Shown here in pieces: positions 1,400-36,672 of a DNA stretch of 64,000 bases. The notes below the pieces were generated by a model. It worked only from the letters and a program-made list of their open reading frames with translations, had not been told where the DNA came from and made no database searches. Within the stretch, counting starts at the first letter, position 1. Every line of letters starts with the position of its first letter. This DNA comes from Escherichia phage JS10. The DNA lies in the sequence record EU863409, one strand, 5' to 3'. The position numbers and the translations under genes were made by a program.

Positions 1400-3078
1400 T
1401 CTAACACCGTGAATCGCCCAACTTTCTTCATTTGAAGATGTTGGCCATAAGCTTGTGGGTCATGGTCTCGGTGAGAGATAATGAACACGTTCGTATCCTC
1501 AAGGCTATTCAAGATGGTTGCAATGCTCTTAACGCCTTCAGAATCCGTGGCACTATCAAAAACTTCATCAAGAATTAACGTGCTGATATTAACACCTGAT
1601 ACCTTAGAAGCAATATCACGCCATGTAAAAAGAAGTGCGATATCAATACGTGCTTTCTCACCCTGTGAAAATGAAGCATAACTAAAGTCTTCACGTCCAC
1701 GTGATTTAATCGTCTCATTGAATTCTTCGTCTAGGGTAAAGACGTAGTCCGCTTCCATAATCTTCAAATAAGAATTAATCTGCTTATTAAAGATAGGAAT
1801 GTATTTCTTAATAATGGAACCTTTAATACCAGTATCCTTCAACATTTCTGTCAGAATTCCACGATGATATTTTTCCATTACCAAGGACGATTTGGTAGAG
1901 ACGATTTTATCAAGCTCTGCTTGAAGCGCAGCAATCTCTTCGGCATTACTTACGAACTCAGCTGCTGCCTGGTCAATTAATACCTTAACCTTTTTGGCTT
2001 TCTCTACGGCAGTAATGGCTTGCTGCTTATGAGTAGCTATCTGAGATTTAATAGCCAACGCTTTATTGCGTTGTTCGGTTACTTGGTCTTTAATGAGCTT
2101 GAGCTCTTGGTATTGCTCATTAATCTTATCCAAAGATTTTTGAAGCTCAAAGTTTTTATCCTTAATTTTAGTAAGGATATTACCATGCTCTTCTAACCCT
2201 TGCATACACGTAGGGCAGTGACCACCAGTTTCGTATAACTTAACCACCTTTGTAAAGGTTGCCATATCATTTTTGATTGCAAATCCTTTATTACTCAGGT
2301 CACTCATGGAGTCGCTAGGGTCATCATCTACGATAACATTGAGTAATTCATCAGTCAGGGATTCTATGCTCGCCTTCGCAGTCCTGGCTTCTTTAACGAG
2401 CTCATCATACATTAATTGTAGGCGGGCGGCGTTCTCGCCGGATAATTTACGTTGACGTTCTTCGTTGTCATTATAAATTTTAATTTGTTGGGTAATAGAA
2501 TCTTGCTTAACGTCTATTACTTGGATTTGGCTATTAGTCTCACGAATTAAAGATTTGTTCAACTTATCCATATCCGCTAATACAGAAACCTCTAAGAGGT
2601 CTTCGACGAGTTTTCTTCTTGCAGGAGTGGATAGGCCCATAAAAGGGGTATATCCAGCTGTGCCGAGTACGACAATTTGTTTGAAGCTTGCATAGGACAT
2701 TCCGATAAGCTGTTCAAATTCCGCTTGGAAGTCTTTACTGCTGGCAGATTCATCAAGACGTTCACCGTCACAAGAGATTTCAAAAACGTTGGGTTTTTGC
2801 CCGCGTTTGATATAGTATTCTTTGCCATCATATTCCATCCACAGTTCGACCAAAAGGTCTTTCTTGTTACTTGAGTTAATCAACTGCCCTTTCTTAACAT
2901 CACGAAAAGGCTTACCGAACAGAGCAAATGTTACAGCTTCAAGGAATGTTGATTTCCCTGCACCATTTTTACCAGTGACTAAGGTCTTTTGGACCTTATC
3001 AAGTTGGATTGTAATAGGCTGCTGCCCTACCGACATAATATTTTTATACGTTACTTTTTTTAACTTAAAAGTCTTCAT
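1396..3078 (-). CDS. 46: recombination endonuclease ATPase subunit gp46 (SbcC/Rad50-like)
   Basis: Walker A GKNGAGKST near N-terminus, long coiled-coil middle, C-terminal signature/D-loop region; start set to internal ATG (MKTFKLKK) with AAGGA SD giving 560 aa. Confidence 0.9.
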   Translation of the reverse strand: MKTFKLKKVTYKNIMSVGQQPITIQLDKVQKTLVTGKNGAGKSTFLEAVTFALFGKPFRDVKKGQLINSSNKKDLLVELWMEYDGKEYYIKRGQKPNVFEISCDGERLDESASSKDFQAEFEQLIGMSYASFKQIVVLGTAGYTPFMGLSTPARRKLVEDLLEVSVLADMDKLNKSLIRETNSQIQVIDVKQDSITQQIKIYNDNEERQRKLSGENAARLQLMYDELVKEARTAKASIESLTDELLNVIVDDDPSDSMSDLSNKGFAIKNDMATFTKVVKLYETGGHCPTCMQGLEEHGNILTKIKDKNFELQKSLDKINEQYQELKLIKDQVTEQRNKALAIKSQIATHKQQAITAVEKAKKVKVLIDQAAAEFVSNAEEIAALQAELDKIVSTKSSLVMEKYHRGILTEMLKDTGIKGSIIKKYIPIFNKQINSYLKIMEADYVFTLDEEFNETIKSRGREDFSYASFSQGEKARIDIALLFTWRDIASKVSGVNISTLILDEVFDSATDSEGVKSIATILNSLEDTNVFIISHRDHDPQAYGQHLQMKKVGRFTVLE

Positions 3079-3328
3079 CGTTATAAGCATCCTTGATGCA
3101 TGATTCAGCCATATGAATTAATGTTTCTGGAGTATCATCTACCATTACATTAAAGCTAAATTCCACAGCCCAATCGGTAGCAACATAAACTTTAATAAGC
3201 TCGCCGGTATCACGAGTGCTCACGGCTTCAAACCAGAACTTAATTGTACTAGGTTGTCCATCATCATCAATAACTATACAGTCGTGTTCCAGTTCAAGTC
3301 CCGATTTTTTGAATTCATCTAAAGTCAT
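3065..3328 (-). CDS. 46.1-like hypothetical protein
   Basis: 87-aa acidic ORF between genes 47 and 46; ATGA overlap with gene 47 stop. Confidence 0.5.
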   Translation of the reverse strand: MTLDEFKKSGLELEHDCIVIDDDGQPSTIKFWFEAVSTRDTGELIKVYVATDWAVEFSFNVMVDDTPETLIHMAESCIKDAYNDEDF

Positions 3329-4988: not shown

Positions 4989-5300
4989 TTATTTACTAGC
5001 GCCATTGATAATTTCCCAAATCTGTTTACGCGTAGTTTCCCACATAACTCTAACGATTTCGTCAGTAGTTGGTTGACGGTAAATACCACGTAATTTAATT
5101 ATAGCATATTTGTAAGCTTCGAAATTGTTTTCGAGAACAGCGCCCTGAGCATGTGTATTAAGACGCTTAATTTCACGGGCATTCTTTTTAAGAATTTTGG
5201 CAGCTTGGGAAGCGGCTTCTTTAGCATTATTCTCTTCTAAACGCTTCTGGGCTTCTTCAATTTGCTCTTCGGTCAATTGAGAAATGTCGGTGCTTTGCAT
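4989..5300 (-). CDS. hypothetical coiled-coil protein
   Basis: 103-aa charged helical ORF; AAGGAT SD; abuts upstream gene stop. Confidence 0.55.
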   Translation of the reverse strand: MQSTDISQLTEEQIEEAQKRLEENNAKEAASQAAKILKKNAREIKRLNTHAQGAVLENNFEAYKYAIIKLRGIYRQPTTDEIVRVMWETTRKQIWEIINGASK

Positions 5301-30254: not shown

Positions 30255-31214
30255 TTATTTTTCGAAAGGACGAATTAAATGTTGGTTAGCCTTGAAACGA
30301 TTAACATAGTCTTCGCGACCCAGGGTGTTATACATATTAACCACAGCTTGGTAGTTTTCCCAGGCATACTCACGGAACCATCCAGAAGTAATGGAGGTAC
30401 AGACTTTTTCCAGAGCAACATGGAAGCTCACGGATGGAGAGATATTGAACTCATTAGGAACCTGCGAACGCTCTAGAGCAAGTACACATGCTTCTTCATA
30501 TACGCCAGCCAGTTTAATAGCTTCAGGCAAAGCTTCAAACTTCTCACGTGAGGTCATGACTTCAGAACCATCTTTCATATAAAAGGTATACGCTGGGCGT
30601 CCAGCCAATGCCACAGCTTCATGGATAGAGTCATGGTCTAATGTATAAATGGTATCATTAAAGAACGATGATTTGTTTACATCCAATTTAGGATGAGAAT
30701 AGCTCAACGTTTCTTTCTGGCGTTGCAGCATGATTTCTTGGAGCTCTTCATTCAAGGTTACACCTTTATTACGAAGATATTTGATGTGGGACATCGTCTT
30801 CAAAAAGAACGGGTTGTTCTTCAAATAACGATGGCTCATTTTGATAGCCAGACAGATATCAGGCGTGGCCCAATAGAAACCAGTAAGACGATCCTTTTTA
30901 ATATGATTTTCAGCATATTTCAGGAGACGATAACTTGAGGTGAAATCTTCGTCCTGAAGCTCACCGGTAATTTCTCGTACGTTAGTCAGAGCACGGACAA
31001 TATAAGCTTCAAAATAGGTTTCTTTACCATTGTACATACATTTAAAGGCCTGGACATCTGGATTATCCACAGGGACATGGGCGCCGAACATCCGGGCTTT
31101 AAATTGATTCCATGAGCCTTGGTCGGCAATAAAATCCCAATCAGAATTTTCAATATACTTACTTTCAATCAGACCAGCGTGGTGCAGTGCACGAGAACCA
31201 ATAACTAGCATCAT
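30255..31214 (-). CDS. hypothetical protein (319 aa), possible nucleotidyltransferase-like N-terminus
   Basis: N-terminal IGSRAL...SDWDF weakly resembles a G-S...D-x-D fold motif; otherwise unassigned. Confidence 0.5.
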   Translation of the reverse strand: MMLVIGSRALHHAGLIESKYIENSDWDFIADQGSWNQFKARMFGAHVPVDNPDVQAFKCMYNGKETYFEAYIVRALTNVREITGELQDEDFTSSYRLLKYAENHIKKDRLTGFYWATPDICLAIKMSHRYLKNNPFFLKTMSHIKYLRNKGVTLNEELQEIMLQRQKETLSYSHPKLDVNKSSFFNDTIYTLDHDSIHEAVALAGRPAYTFYMKDGSEVMTSREKFEALPEAIKLAGVYEEACVLALERSQVPNEFNISPSVSFHVALEKVCTSITSGWFREYAWENYQAVVNMYNTLGREDYVNRFKANQHLIRPFEK

Positions 31215-31241: not shown

Positions 31242-31394
31242 TTACTTCATATTTACCCAGTTCAGATTTTTTGCTTCAATACGCGTTGCGGCTAGATTAG
31301 CAGCCTCTAGTGAAGAAAATTGAACCACTTGGGAAGTATTCTGCCTTACGCCACCTTGTGGGTGAGTAACAAAAACAATAAGAACATTATACAT
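31242..31394 (-). CDS. hypothetical small protein (50 aa)
   Basis: Unlisted ORF MYNVLIVFVTHPQGG...; GAGGAAAA SD; shares 16-nt initiation region with gene 30255..31214. Confidence 0.35.
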   Translation of the reverse strand: MYNVLIVFVTHPQGGVRQNTSQVVQFSSLEAANLAATRIEAKNLNWVNMK

Positions 31395-31415
31395 AATATT
31401 TTCCTCAGAGTAAAC

Positions 31416-31708: not shown

Positions 31709-32038
31709 CTAGAGTTGTACATCACTTCTACAATATTCTAAAAATAATTTATCGTTGTCTACTGTATCCCAACGTCGCCAAGATGGATTCCAGACCAAAG
31801 CGTTGTCACCACAATCATTGAGCTTAAAATGGTCATAGTACATGGCTATGTGTCTAGTCTCGTCACCAGAGAACCCTAGTATAGGCTCGCCGTGGGTATG
31901 ATACATATGGTGATGCATTGAGAGGTCGCATTTATAAAACATCTCACGTTTACCACGAATGAACAAGAAAGCTTGTCCATTCATATAGAATTCTTTATCC
32001 GTTTTCAAAAGGTATTTGAATACTGAATCTTTATGCAT
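31709..32038 (-). CDS. hypothetical His-rich protein
   Basis: Start at ATG with AGGAGG SD; HHHMYHTHGE metal-binding-like stretch. Confidence 0.5.
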   Translation of the reverse strand: MHKDSVFKYLLKTDKEFYMNGQAFLFIRGKREMFYKCDLSMHHHMYHTHGEPILGFSGDETRHIAMYYDHFKLNDCGDNALVWNPSWRRWDTVDNDKLFLEYCRSDVQL

Positions 32039-32068
32039 AAGTCCTCCTACCACATCCGTGTGGTTAAA

Positions 32069-32296
32069 TTATTTTCCTAACGAAATACGAGTAGGTTTTT
32101 TGCCAAAGTATTCTTCATAAGAACCATCTAAACGACCTGCTTTAGACCGACAATATGAATCATACTTTTTGTAATAGGTCATCTCAGTATTATAACGTGG
32201 ATGTCTATCAGCCATAATAATACTTAATGGCCAACCTTTGGCATACTCGCGAAGACCGTTTATTTTACGAATGTATCTTTTCTTTAATTTTAGCAT
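32069..32296 (-). CDS. hypothetical basic protein
   Basis: 75-aa Arg/Lys/Tyr-rich ORF. Confidence 0.45.
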   Translation of the reverse strand: MLKLKKRYIRKINGLREYAKGWPLSIIMADRHPRYNTEMTYYKKYDSYCRSKAGRLDGSYEEYFGKKPTRISLGK

Positions 32297-32514
32297 GAGC
32301 TCGGGTACCAGATTTTACCATCGGAACGAGCAACGAAGGTGCGACCAGCTTCTTCGCCGTAACAAGAGCTATTCAGCCAATCTTCAAGACGAACTTCACC
32401 ATCGTAATCGTCTAACTCAACACCAAAACTTTGAGCAGAAGCCATATCTTTTACTTTCTTATACAATGCAGCCAGTTCAAGAGCAGCTTTTTCTAATTCA
32501 TTAATATCAGTCAT
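32290..32514 (-). CDS. small acidic protein, W-x-S-S-C C-terminal family (copy 5)
   Basis: 74 aa ending WYPSSC; last of five tandem paralogs. Confidence 0.5.
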   Translation of the reverse strand: MTDINELEKAALELAALYKKVKDMASAQSFGVELDDYDGEVRLEDWLNSSCYGEEAGRTFVARSDGKIWYPSSC

Positions 32515-32526
32515 TTTTTTTATTCC

Positions 32527-32736
32527 TTAGCAAGACATAGAGGAGCTAAACCAGAAACCTTCACCATCTGGGATACCGTAATCATCACGGACCCATTCGT
32601 AATCATCATATTCCGGACTAGAAGCCGGAATATATTCTTCGCCACCAGCGTGGAAGTGCTGACCTGTTTCGTCAGCCACGGACTGGCCTTTACGTACTAA
32701 TTCACGGATTTGTTTTTCAATTTCATCAATAGTCAT
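32527..32736 (-). CDS. small acidic protein, W-x-S-S-S-x-x-C family (copy 4)
   Basis: 69 aa ending WFSSSMSC. Confidence 0.5.
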   Translation of the reverse strand: MTIDEIEKQIRELVRKGQSVADETGQHFHAGGEEYIPASSPEYDDYEWVRDDYGIPDGEGFWFSSSMSC

Positions 32737-32745
32737 TTTATTACC

Positions 32746-32943
32746 TTAGCATTCGTAAGAGGAGGACACCCAAGAGGTACCACTAATAGTAATACAACCG
32801 TTATAAAGCGTGATATGTCGTTCTAGGTCACGGACACCATCAATATAGATATCAGCTTCTTCGCGTTCTTCTTTACAAATTTGAATAACGTTTTCAATTG
32901 CTGCAGCGGCAGTTCGGATTGCACAATCTAATTCACGAGACAT
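32746..32943 (-). CDS. small acidic protein, W-x-S-S-S-x-x-C family (copy 3)
   Basis: 65 aa ending WVSSSYEC. Confidence 0.5.
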   Translation of the reverse strand: MSRELDCAIRTAAAAIENVIQICKEEREEADIYIDGVRDLERHITLYNGCITISGTSWVSSSYEC

Positions 32944-32952
32944 AATATTTCC

Positions 32953-33234
32953 TTAACATTCAGAAGAAGAGGACACCCAACCACCATTTTCCAGGTCAGT
33001 TGTATAGTCATGAGTATTAACAATAGCCCATTCAGGATGACCATCTTCTTCCCAATGGGCAAGGTCAGCTTTCAAGGCACCAGGAGAATAATAGTCACCG
33101 CCCATACCGCGAGCAGGGTATATATTAAAATGAGTCTCATATTTGTCTGCAATTTCCTCGGCACGACGAATAGCTTCATGAATTTCTTTTACTGCGGCCA
33201 GAAGCTCTGGGTTGTTATGATTATCATTCATCAT
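32953..33234 (-). CDS. small acidic protein, W-x-S-S-S-x-x-C family (copy 2)
   Basis: 93 aa ending WVSSSSEC; shares IADKY...GGDYY block with copy 1. Confidence 0.5.
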   Translation of the reverse strand: MMNDNHNNPELLAAVKEIHEAIRRAEEIADKYETHFNIYPARGMGGDYYSPGALKADLAHWEEDGHPEWAIVNTHDYTTDLENGGWVSSSSEC

Positions 33235-33243
33235 AGCTTTTCC

Positions 33244-33534
33244 TTAGCACATTGCCGAAGAGGAGACCCAGGCACCAACTGTAACGACACCGTTTTCAAC
33301 TTCACCGCCATTGTTTTCAATTTCATCTTTAAACCACTGGGAGCATTCATAACCAACAGGGTAGTATGTACGTCCTGAGCCATAATCACCTGTTCCGAAT
33401 TGAATACCATACTTATCGGCAATAGCTTCACATTTGTGTTCGATGGTATCCACTTTATTCAGAAGAGCATAGATAGCCTTTTCTGCAGATTTCTCGTCGT
33501 TGTATTCAGGGATTTCAATTTCAATTTTATTCAT
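33244..33534 (-). CDS. small acidic protein, W-x-S-S-S-x-x-C family (copy 1)
   Basis: 96 aa ending WVSSSAMC; ATGA overlap with upstream membrane protein gene. Confidence 0.5.
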   Translation of the reverse strand: MNKIEIEIPEYNDEKSAEKAIYALLNKVDTIEHKCEAIADKYGIQFGTGDYGSGRTYYPVGYECSQWFKDEIENNGGEVENGVVTVGAWVSSSAMC

Positions 33535-33884
33535 GATTTACATTCCTTAATAAAGGTTTCAAGGTCATTACGGTTGGTTTGTTTTACATACTCATTATAA
33601 TTAGCCATCTCTAAAGCATATCTCTTACGGATGGGGGCATTCAAAGCATTTGTATGGCAAATATCATACACGAGAGGGATAAAATAAGCCACGACAGCCG
33701 GAGCGATTATCATATAGAAACCCATCTCAATAGGCATGACTCCTTCGATTGCAGCCATAACTGTGGTCATTACCAGACCAACCAGACCGCCGAGCATACC
33801 GGTGACAATTCCCATAAATAAGGAAATAGCAATATCATATTCAGCCAATTGATAAACATGTGATGAAAGACTAGGCCGCTCCAT
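33531..33884 (-). CDS. membrane protein with C-terminal FIKEC module
   Basis: 117 aa from internal ATG with AAGAGG SD; two hydrophobic helices; ends NDLETFIKECKS. Confidence 0.5.
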   Translation of the reverse strand: MERPSLSSHVYQLAEYDIAISLFMGIVTGMLGGLVGLVMTTVMAAIEGVMPIEMGFYMIIAPAVVAYFIPLVYDICHTNALNAPIRKRYALEMANYNEYVKQTNRNDLETFIKECKS

Positions 33885-34413
33885 TTTGAACCTCTTTAGC
33901 GTATTCACGGCATTCTTTAATAAAACGATTAAGTTTACGTTGCTGTTTACGACTCTCTGATGTGTATTCGTTGGCTAAAATAATAAGCTCATCTTTATCG
34001 TAGTTTTTGATATCCGAATAACTCGGACGGCGGTCGACCATACCAAATACATCCCCATTTTCTAGTGCCACATAACATACTAAATGATAATCATCATCTG
34101 CAACATTAATATGTACACAGTCAGTACTCTCGTTTAAAGAATATACTGAATATCTCACTCCAGCGAATTTAGCACTCTGTATACCCAATCCAAGGTCAAT
34201 AATTTCTAAAGCTTCTGCAAAAGAAAGGTCTTCAGCTAAAGCAAAGATAAAGGGTAATTTGGTAGTATATCCACGTCTACTTGTTCGACTTAAGAAATCA
34301 TTGGAATAACCTAGGTCTTGGCGAATTCTATAAAGAACAGTATTAGTTTCATGGGAAAGACCACTATGTTTAAACCAGTCTACATTTGATATAAGGTCGG
34401 TATATAAGCTCAT
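33871..34413 (-). CDS. hypothetical protein with FIKEC module
   Basis: 180 aa; ...RKLNRFIKECREYAKEVQNGAA at C-terminus. Confidence 0.5.
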   Translation of the reverse strand: MSLYTDLISNVDWFKHSGLSHETNTVLYRIRQDLGYSNDFLSRTSRRGYTTKLPFIFALAEDLSFAEALEIIDLGLGIQSAKFAGVRYSVYSLNESTDCVHINVADDDYHLVCYVALENGDVFGMVDRRPSYSDIKNYDKDELIILANEYTSESRKQQRKLNRFIKECREYAKEVQNGAA

Positions 34414-35055: not shown

Positions 35056-35128
35056 AGTATTTCCTTCAGTCGGTTGGTATTTTGTAATCCATGAGGACAT
35101 TATACCCTGTCCTCTGAGGGTTGTAAAC
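35056..35128 (-). promoter_or_regulatory. sigma70-like early promoter with stem-loop over -10
   Basis: -35 GTTTAC (35123-35128), 18-bp spacer, -10 TATAAT (35099-35104) inside hairpin GAGGACA-N7-TGTCCTC. Confidence 0.5.
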
Positions 35129-36439: not shown

Positions 36440-36515
36440 TGGTCGAGACAGTAGGGATCGAACCTACGACCTACGGTTTAGAAGACCGTTGCTCTTCCTT
36501 CTGAGCTATGCCTCG
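36440..36515 (-). tRNA. tRNA-Arg (anticodon UCU)
   Basis: 76-nt cloverleaf: anticodon stem ACGGT/ACCGT with loop CTTCTAA, T-arm GTAGG-TTCGATC-CCTAC, encoded CCA; unusual C1-G72 acceptor start. Confidence 0.65.
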
Positions 36516-36519
36516 TATT

Positions 36520-36594
36520 TGGCGGACATGCATGGATTCGAACCATGGACCAATTGATTAACAGTCAACTGCTCTACCACTGAGCTACACATCC
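36520..36594 (-). tRNA. tRNA-Asn (anticodon GUU)
   Basis: 75-nt cloverleaf: D-arm TAGCTCAGTGGTAGAGC, anticodon loop CTGTTAA, T-arm CATGG-TTCGAAT-CCATG, encoded CCA. Confidence 0.75.
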
Positions 36595-36598
36595 AAAT

Positions 36599-36672
36599 TG
36601 GTGGCCCTGGGTGGAATCGAACCACCATCCAGCGATTATGAGTCGCTCGCTTGACCGTCCAGCTACAGGGCC
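36599..36672 (-). tRNA. tRNA-Met/Ile2 (anticodon CAU)
   Basis: 74-nt cloverleaf: acceptor GGCCCTG/CAGGGCC, anticodon stem AGCGA/TCGCT with loop CTCATAA, T-arm GGTGG-TTCGATT-CCACC, encoded CCA. Confidence 0.75.

Follow-up and report, generated by a model that had tools for sequence, protein, structure and literature searches.

What keeps one short C-terminal sequence on five neighbouring small proteins of a phage? The question is raised by a stretch of 64,000 nucleotides (nt) from Escherichia phage JS10 (sequence record EU863409), here called the window, in which five consecutive small genes on the minus strand form an array (Table 1) whose products all end in a tail built from Trp, Ser and Cys. 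Our analysis points to an undescribed two-part phage module, consisting of the tail genes and of a gene for a MenT-like nucleotidyltransferase (NTase). Over positions 32000-34000 the window is 97.6% identical to phage JS98; JS10 is a JS98-like Dhakavirus and as such a relative of T4.

The five array genes are real and constrained. A sequence-only reading of the window had listed five back-to-back minus-strand open reading frames (ORFs) for proteins of 65-96 amino acids (aa), and both the ORF listing and the sequence contain them; the tails WVSSSAMC, WVSSSSEC, WVSSSYEC, WFSSSMSC and WYPSSC and the serine codons used in each of them are likewise as given there. The proteins had also been called acidic, which computed isoelectric points (pI) of 4.18-4.59 and net charges of -6 to -12 bear out for all five. 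The genes are joined by TAAGG(A/T)A-N-ATG, where a Shine-Dalgarno-like AAGGA overlaps the stop codon; the Shine-Dalgarno sequence announced for each spacer between copies does exist, formed in part by the stop codon, and the ATG of copy 1 in turn overlaps the stop codon of the membrane-protein gene upstream. The window has 614 stop-to-stop ORFs with a length of 40 aa or more; among them the tail is confined to the five array members, and the pattern is therefore beyond chance. Since ratios of non-synonymous to synonymous substitution rates (dN/dS) of 0.11-0.35 were obtained for the copies against their orthologues in Shigella phage SP18, all five must be genuine coding genes under constraint. 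Phage JS98 has all five copies as well. Copy 4 is intact there (NC_010105, 6526-6735) yet unannotated in the reference record, whose list of coding sequences skips from orf126 to orf127.

The relationship among the five proteins resides mainly in their tails. When the last nine residues were removed and the remaining heads compared by BLAST, similarity was found between copies 1 and 2 (expect value (E) 0.004) and between copies 2 and 4 (E 8e-5), whereas for the heads of copies 3 and 5 no similarity was detected, either between these two or with any other copy. The description of the array as five paralogues is thus justified by head sequence for copies 1, 2 and 4 and not for copies 3 and 5; copy 3 is also assigned to another PHROG (phrog_4882) than copies 1, 2, 4 and 5 (phrog_899). 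Because the heads of copies 3 and 5 match no other copy, it is the tail that constitutes the shared unit. In the full alignment the only invariant positions are the tail residues W, S, S and C, accompanied by a near-invariant Gly and Trp. It had further been concluded from the differing serine codons that the tail is conserved as protein and not as a copied nucleotide block. The codons do differ and the protein sequence is conserved widely, but a 48-nt block recurs four times at the junctions with 60-79% identity, a nucleotide similarity beyond that supposed in the reading. The block could act as a substrate for unequal recombination, leading to a change in copy number or a swap of heads.

Copy 5 has two copies of the motif, an internal DWLNSSC and the terminal WYPSSC, and type-5 orthologues from other loci (L005, L006 and L007) are double as well, with D-W-x-x-S-S-C-Y-G-E inside and W-x-P-S-S-C at the end. 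This pattern hints at an internal duplication and shows that the motif can also occupy the interior of the chain.

The tail occurs well beyond the JS98-like phages. A tblastn search with copy 1 retrieved 378 phage records (from phages of Escherichia, Aeromonas, Enterobacter, Klebsiella, Serratia, Citrobacter and others). A protein search with copy 2 alone gave 7 matches, restricted to close relatives, a profile of all five copies gave 42, and a profile search of 1.84 billion representatives led to 214 clusters at 50% identity. Nearly all of these clusters consist of proteins of 70-140 aa that stand alone and are matched up to their last residue, and no informative fusions were present among the 214. 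Cys is the final residue of the tail in 138 of the best 150 cluster representatives and is followed by one further residue in 8 more. The logo of the tail reads G-G-W-h-S-S-S-x-x-C; among the 131 tails of eight residues, W(-7), S(-4), S(-3) and C(0) never vary. The motif, which was looked for in related phages, is accordingly no lineage noise. In the model calculated for copy 2 with AlphaFold2 (predicted local distance difference test score (pLDDT) 85.2), the chain begins with a long N-terminal helix and continues through a beta-hairpin and another helix to a closing strand, G-G-W-V-S; the pLDDT falls below 50 in the three C-terminal residues, which are disordered.

None of this leads to a characterized family. 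Searches of the small proteins against Pfam, NCBIfam, PADLOC, PDB sequences and profiles and PDB folds yielded no significant match, and BFVD returned uncharacterized family members only. The syntenic e.2/e.3 region of T4 holds no counterpart of the array, as e.3 directly abuts e.2 there, and the annotations of JS98 and of Aeromonas phage 44RR2.8t cite RB69 ORFs for the small genes and no T4 genes. For this syntenic region, the result agrees with the remark in the sequence-only reading that no described T4 family was recognized; its idea of heads that inhibit or mimic host proteins found no support. In RB69 itself, a frameshift divides the type-1 gene into ORF139c without a tail and ORF138c with the degenerate tail AWVSSPALC (4989-5204 and 5137-5295), which suggests that the type-1 copy is dispensable in this laboratory strain.

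The first sign of a link to another gene came from phage 44RR2.8t, where the small genes have been relocated to the nrdD-nrdC.2 region and still stand directly before a homologue of the 319-aa protein that is encoded downstream of the array in JS10. Tail genes were also found beside this partner gene in Edwardsiella phage PEi20 (five copies), RB69 (three intact copies and one split), Phapecoctavirus nepoznato, Pseudomonas phage phiPsa374, Stenotrophomonas phage Mendera, Salmonella jumbo phage Munch and Acinetobacter phage Octan (tails WYNSSESC, WSPSSESY and WSNSES). Some members in Octan (2498-3116) thus end in Tyr or Ser, and the Octan enzyme has Y in place of C243.

We surveyed this linkage from both sides. 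In the forward direction, 80 IMG/VR loci were chosen solely for encoding a protein of the 319-aa type, and a tail was defined as W.[SPTAN]S{1,3}.{0,3}C; the loci include related genomes, so that the counts are not independent events, and they cover at least six distinct phage lineages. At least one same-strand tail ORF was present in 72 of the 80 loci. Tail ORFs made up 206 of 3,990 ORFs on the strand of the partner gene versus 0 of 4,324 on the opposite strand, and 200 of 202 were located upstream of the partner gene, at a median distance of 884 nt and within 2.5 kilobases (kb) in 97.5% of the cases. Among the eight 'negative' loci, two encode tails of a relaxed form (WVQSSC and WAGSSC), and another has no upstream sequence. 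In the reverse direction, the type-2 motif PAYGMGG was written as a degenerate DNA pattern, which gave 61 matches, 26 of them true small-family loci and 35 chance matches or not scored as family. Of the small-family loci, 14 extend 3 kb or more downstream, and the partner gene was present in every one of these. Across unrelated phages, linkage of the two kinds of gene is almost obligate, and it is directional.

The partner enzyme matches 733 phage records, and tail proteins are absent with its distant homologues from Vibrio, Gordonia and Streptomyces phages; nor are they found near the partner gene in a close lineage (loci L066, L067, L071 and L092) and in the CC31-like locus L037. The dependence thus appears to be one-sided, with the small proteins relying on the partner, which some phages encode in the absence of tail proteins.

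Close and conserved neighbourhood might of course be incidental, the tail serving an altogether different partner (for instance as a degron, as a site for metal or persulfide, or as a handle used by a host protein) and the genes being neighbours merely through a shared early, hyperplastic block. The interval between e.3 and e.2 is indeed a variable insertion zone relative to T4, the intervening genes vary by lineage, and a terminal Cys could bind metal. Hitch-hiking, however, explains neither the linkage in at least six unrelated phage lineages nor its persistence after relocation, and it leaves the 14 out of 14 reciprocal co-occurrences and the strict upstream, same-strand order without a cause. 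We consider this explanation decidedly improbable.

The nature of the partner was approached through its fold. The 319-aa protein matches the Pfam domains DUF7277 and DUF7275 with 262.4 and 92.9 bits (cut-off 27 each). Its AlphaFold model, based on 54 homologues, has a mean pLDDT of 92.6, and fold comparison, including three-dimensional similarity of the catalytic domain, identifies a nucleotidyltransferase of the MenT/AbiEii/ANT type. According to this model, the partner combines such an NTase fold with a conserved helical C-terminal domain. Residues G6, S7, D25, D27 and E69, which provide Pol-beta NTase motifs I and II (hG[GS] ... [DE]h[DE]h) and the third acidic residue, are invariant in the 54 homologues and kept in distant ones, so that the sequences are consistent with an active enzyme. 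Membership in the MenT/AbiEii sequence family DUF1814, to which a motif IV of its own belongs, was considered and rejected, as Pfam gave no match to PF08843 at E up to 1 and PADLOC, NCBIfam and PDB-profile searches gave none either. Comparison with PDB sequences by phmmer and profile returned nothing but chance matches to PsaB. Conservation within the enzyme is highest in the C-terminal helical domain of 170 aa, DUF7275, for which there is no clear structural match.

The suggestion of the sequence-only reading that the tail could be a common handle on diversified heads can now be taken further. The heads are diverse (in 61 of 218 tail ORFs, compared after removal of the tails, they are unlike any of the five copies), and the likely partner of the handle is the co-encoded MenT-like nucleotidyltransferase, which the small proteins would contact. 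Comparison of enzymes with and without accompanying tail proteins may indicate where. A core of residues is kept in the distant tail-less homologues (G6, S7, D25, D27, K125, S127, H128, K139, H194, D195, H198, P207, Y209, E240, E241, E248 and R249), while R129, T140, R165, Y172, H174, P175, C272, S274, S277, F280, R281 and W285 are missing from them. The close tail-less loci L066, L067, L071 and L092, probably one lineage, carry Y209F and W279R, which may represent a single event. Residues that differ with the presence of tails are candidates for a tail-binding surface, in a comparison of few independent lineages.

The small proteins might instead be specificity adaptors, the tail docking on DUF7275 and each variable head supplying a single catalytic subunit with a different substrate, be it particular tRNAs, RNAs of another kind or host proteins. 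The architecture with one constant handle and many heads would suit this idea, as would the conservation of DUF7275, the block of its residues that is specific to the tail-associated clades and the tRNA, RNA ligase, kinase and phosphatase genes that are often located near the enzyme gene. The heads, however, comprise only about 55-85 aa, are acidic and lack known RNA-binding features, and acidic proteins bind RNA poorly; moreover, the enzyme does without small proteins in some phages. We therefore regard adaptors as unlikely.

The explanation that we tentatively prefer is that the tail constitutes a C-terminal recognition and acceptor box for the MenT/ANT-like enzyme, which would nucleotidylate a tail Ser (or Cys). 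We base this on several considerations: the invariant residues of the tail are nucleophiles; the tail must sit at the C-terminus or within one residue of it; the structural relatives ANT and Lnu nucleotidylate hydroxyls; and modification signals likewise occur as one constant element on many heads that are unrelated. In addition, MntA, the minimal NTase of the HEPN/MNT pair, adenylylates a partner encoded next to it (PMC7641770), which sets a precedent for hydroxyl modification by an NTase on the product of a neighbouring gene. The small proteins would then be clients of the NTase encoded about 1 kb downstream, each consisting of an acidic alpha+beta head followed by the box G-G-W-h-S-S-S-x-x-C-COOH. 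Trp and the first Ser would hold the box to the head as a beta-strand, and the flexible final residues would reach the acceptor site of the enzyme, where a Ser hydroxyl of the tail, or possibly the Cys thiol, would receive a nucleotide monophosphate. A single enzyme could in this way service many different heads in the manner of a CaaX box, and the modified heads would then act on various host or phage targets early in infection. We infer physical contact between small protein and enzyme, the tail as the site of this contact, nucleotidyl transfer to it and some role further downstream.

Several points weigh against such a modification. MenT-family enzymes are known to act on tRNA 3' ends and not on protein Ser (PMC10435456). 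The tail Trp and the first Ser are predicted to lie within the folded head, so that structure may account for some of the conservation. The enzyme is found without tail proteins in the CC31-like locus L037, in L066/L092 and among the homologues from Vibrio phages and actinophages, and it must therefore have a function that is independent of them. In the type-5 tail (W-x-P-S-S-C) and in some tails of Acinetobacter phages, which end in Y or S, the spacing of the Cys is altered or the Cys is lost. Finally, the clade-specific differences among the enzymes may stem from one or a few evolutionary events.

A close rival to the modification box is an antitoxin-like plug. In that case, the enzyme would be a MenT-like toxin that extends tRNA 3' ends and is directed against host translation or defence, the acidic proteins would inhibit it by plugging the acceptor or active site with their tail as a pseudo-substrate, and the different heads would sense different cues or times for release. 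MenT1 is inhibited by a protein of 68 aa that is usually encoded upstream (PMC10435456), and the phage genes are nearly always situated upstream of the enzyme gene and never alone. On the other hand, up to five or six distinct inhibitors per enzyme, with orthologous types kept across genera, would not be expected of a simple antitoxin, and the invariant residues are Ser, Ser and Cys instead of a hydrophobic or charged interface. MenA1 acts through a long helix and not through a tail (PMC10435456), and the small proteins show no sequence relation to MenA or AbiEi antitoxins in Pfam, PADLOC, NCBIfam and PDB searches. Gating of this type is a doubtful yet serious possibility.

AviCys peptides form their ring through a C-terminal S-x-x-C. 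The small proteins might hence be precursors of ribosomally synthesized and post-translationally modified peptides (RiPPs), in which activation and elimination at the tail serines yield dehydroalanine and a ring of the lanthionine or AviCys type is closed by the terminal Cys. The tails share the S-x-x-C pattern with AviCys peptides, and an NTase could in principle activate Ser, but the logic would be reversed, with a constant 'core' and a variable, folded 'leader'. Pfam and PHROG comparison of the neighbours revealed no family of dehydratases, cyclases, decarboxylases, proteases or exporters, type-5 tails have Ser at -1 and -2 only and some tails have no Cys at all. The constant tail, the variable and folded heads and the lack of such modification enzymes nearby all speak against precursors of lanthipeptide or AviCys type, and we rate this origin of the tail as extremely improbable.

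By analogy, the module is most like pairs of an NTase and a neighbour-encoded protein such as MenAT1 and HEPN/MNT in the way it may work. It differs from MenAT1/AbiEii in that the phage enzyme has no PF08843/DUF1814 or PDB-profile match and possesses the additional conserved 170-aa helical DUF7275. Furthermore, a phage locus encodes between one and six small proteins, which have no sequence relation to MenA1 and carry the invariant W-x-S-S-S-x-x-C box, and the phage module resides in virulent phages, whereas MenAT1 is found in bacterial chromosomes. A type VII toxin-antitoxin system of the HEPN/MNT kind does not apply, as the tail proteins are not HEPN RNases with an Rx4-6H motif. The aminoglycoside/lincosamide O-nucleotidyltransferases ANT(2''), LnuA and LinB act on small-molecule antibiotics and have neither partner proteins nor DUF7275. 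With the CaaX box the tail shares, as an analogy only, the principle of a short invariant C-terminal Cys box that is borne by unrelated proteins and read by one enzyme. The tail is not itself a CaaX prenylation box, which needs a Cys at -4 followed by aaX, while the tail Cys is final in 138 of 150 representatives; in addition, the enzyme has an NTase and not a prenyltransferase fold, and the phage modification is a proposal.

The array and the enzyme gene are separated by four small genes (Table 1). These appear from sequence comparison to be lineage-specific fillers outside the conserved core, because they are absent in 44RR2.8t and nepoznato. The first of them (32069-32296, minus strand) encodes a strongly basic 75-aa protein (pI 10.0, phrog_7065) that is found in close relatives only and starts within the last codons of copy 5 (tcATGCtaa). 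Two sigma-70-like promoter matches are present, and no minus-strand terminator-like sites were seen between them and the enzyme gene; the sequence suggests that array and enzyme gene may be co-transcribed early. About 3 kb upstream of the array lie three tRNA genes (36443-36672, minus strand), annotated as Arg, Asn and Met in JS98. Elsewhere (loci L005, L007 and L010-L014), the neighbourhood of the enzyme gene often contains tRNA genes and genes for RNA ligase, kinase, metallophosphatase, nicotinamide phosphoribosyltransferase, Sir2 and 'DprA-like' proteins, and a context related to RNA repair or to nicotinamide adenine dinucleotide is possible.

Table 1. Location of the array, the partner gene and adjoining features in the JS10 window
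Feature	Position	Strand	Basis or remark
Array copy 1 (type 1), 96 aa, tail GAWVSSSAMC	33244..33534	-	phrog_899, E 8e-24; dN/dS 0.13
Array copy 2 (type 2), 93 aa, tail GGWVSSSSEC	32953..33234	-	phrog_899, E 3e-19
Array copy 3 (type 3), 65 aa, tail TSWVSSSYEC	32746..32943	-	phrog_4882, E 2e-36
Array copy 4 (type 4), 69 aa, tail GFWFSSSMSC	32527..32736	-	phrog_899, E 3e-13
Array copy 5 (type 5), 74 aa, short tail KIWYPSSC	32290..32514	-	phrog_899, E 2e-9
319-aa DUF7277+DUF7275 protein (RB69 ORF134c, phrog_2141), conserved genetic partner of the tail proteins	30255..31214	-	About 1 kb downstream of the array
Four 48-nt junction repeats (tail codons, TAAGG, start)	32507-32554, 32726-32773, 32933-32980, 33224-33271	.	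60-79% identical
e.3-like membrane protein (phrog_2330), upstream boundary of the array	33531..33908	-	PHROG match, synteny
Four small genes between array and enzyme gene: 75 aa (pI 10), 114 aa, 82 aa, 50 aa	31242..32296	-	ORFs
Best sigma-70-like promoter match, TTTACA-17-TATAAT, 11/12	35099..35127	-	Consensus match only
Second sigma-70-like promoter match, TTTACT-17-TATAAT, 10/12, just upstream of the 50-aa ORF and the enzyme gene	31386..31414	-	Consensus match only

Both components have been catalogued before without a function, the small family as phrog_899 and phrog_4882 and the enzyme as phrog_2141 (E 2e-150) and Pfam DUF7275/DUF7277 (E 3e-78 and 2e-26). Neither the tail motif nor the gene linkage is part of these PHROG and Pfam descriptions, and a search of 8 million publications and preprints by family identifiers and descriptive terms yielded no paper on the module. 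Should the linkage prove functional, early genes so far called 'hypothetical' in a widespread block would turn into a single system that can be tested and that spans T4 relatives (JS98-, RB69- and SP18-like), Phapecoctavirus, Pseudomonas, Acinetobacter, Aeromonas and Stenotrophomonas phages and jumbo phages. The biology of MenT/AbiEii-type enzymes, which concerns toxin-antitoxin defence in bacteria, would then come to include the phage as the other party to the conflict. The module may reveal nucleotidylation of proteins at a Ser/Cys tail or else a multi-input set of inhibitors for a tRNA-modifying toxin. It is conceivable, albeit speculative, that the tail is a dedicated tag for a previously unknown Ser- or Cys-linked (oligo)nucleotidylation by the MenT-like enzyme that arms or switches a whole repertoire of small effectors in virulent phages; if so, phages would encode a writer together with its tagged clients, an arrangement without a described counterpart. 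The simple sequence rule of tail motif plus neighbouring enzyme gene could serve to find further client proteins with new heads, which are candidates for host takeover or anti-defence.

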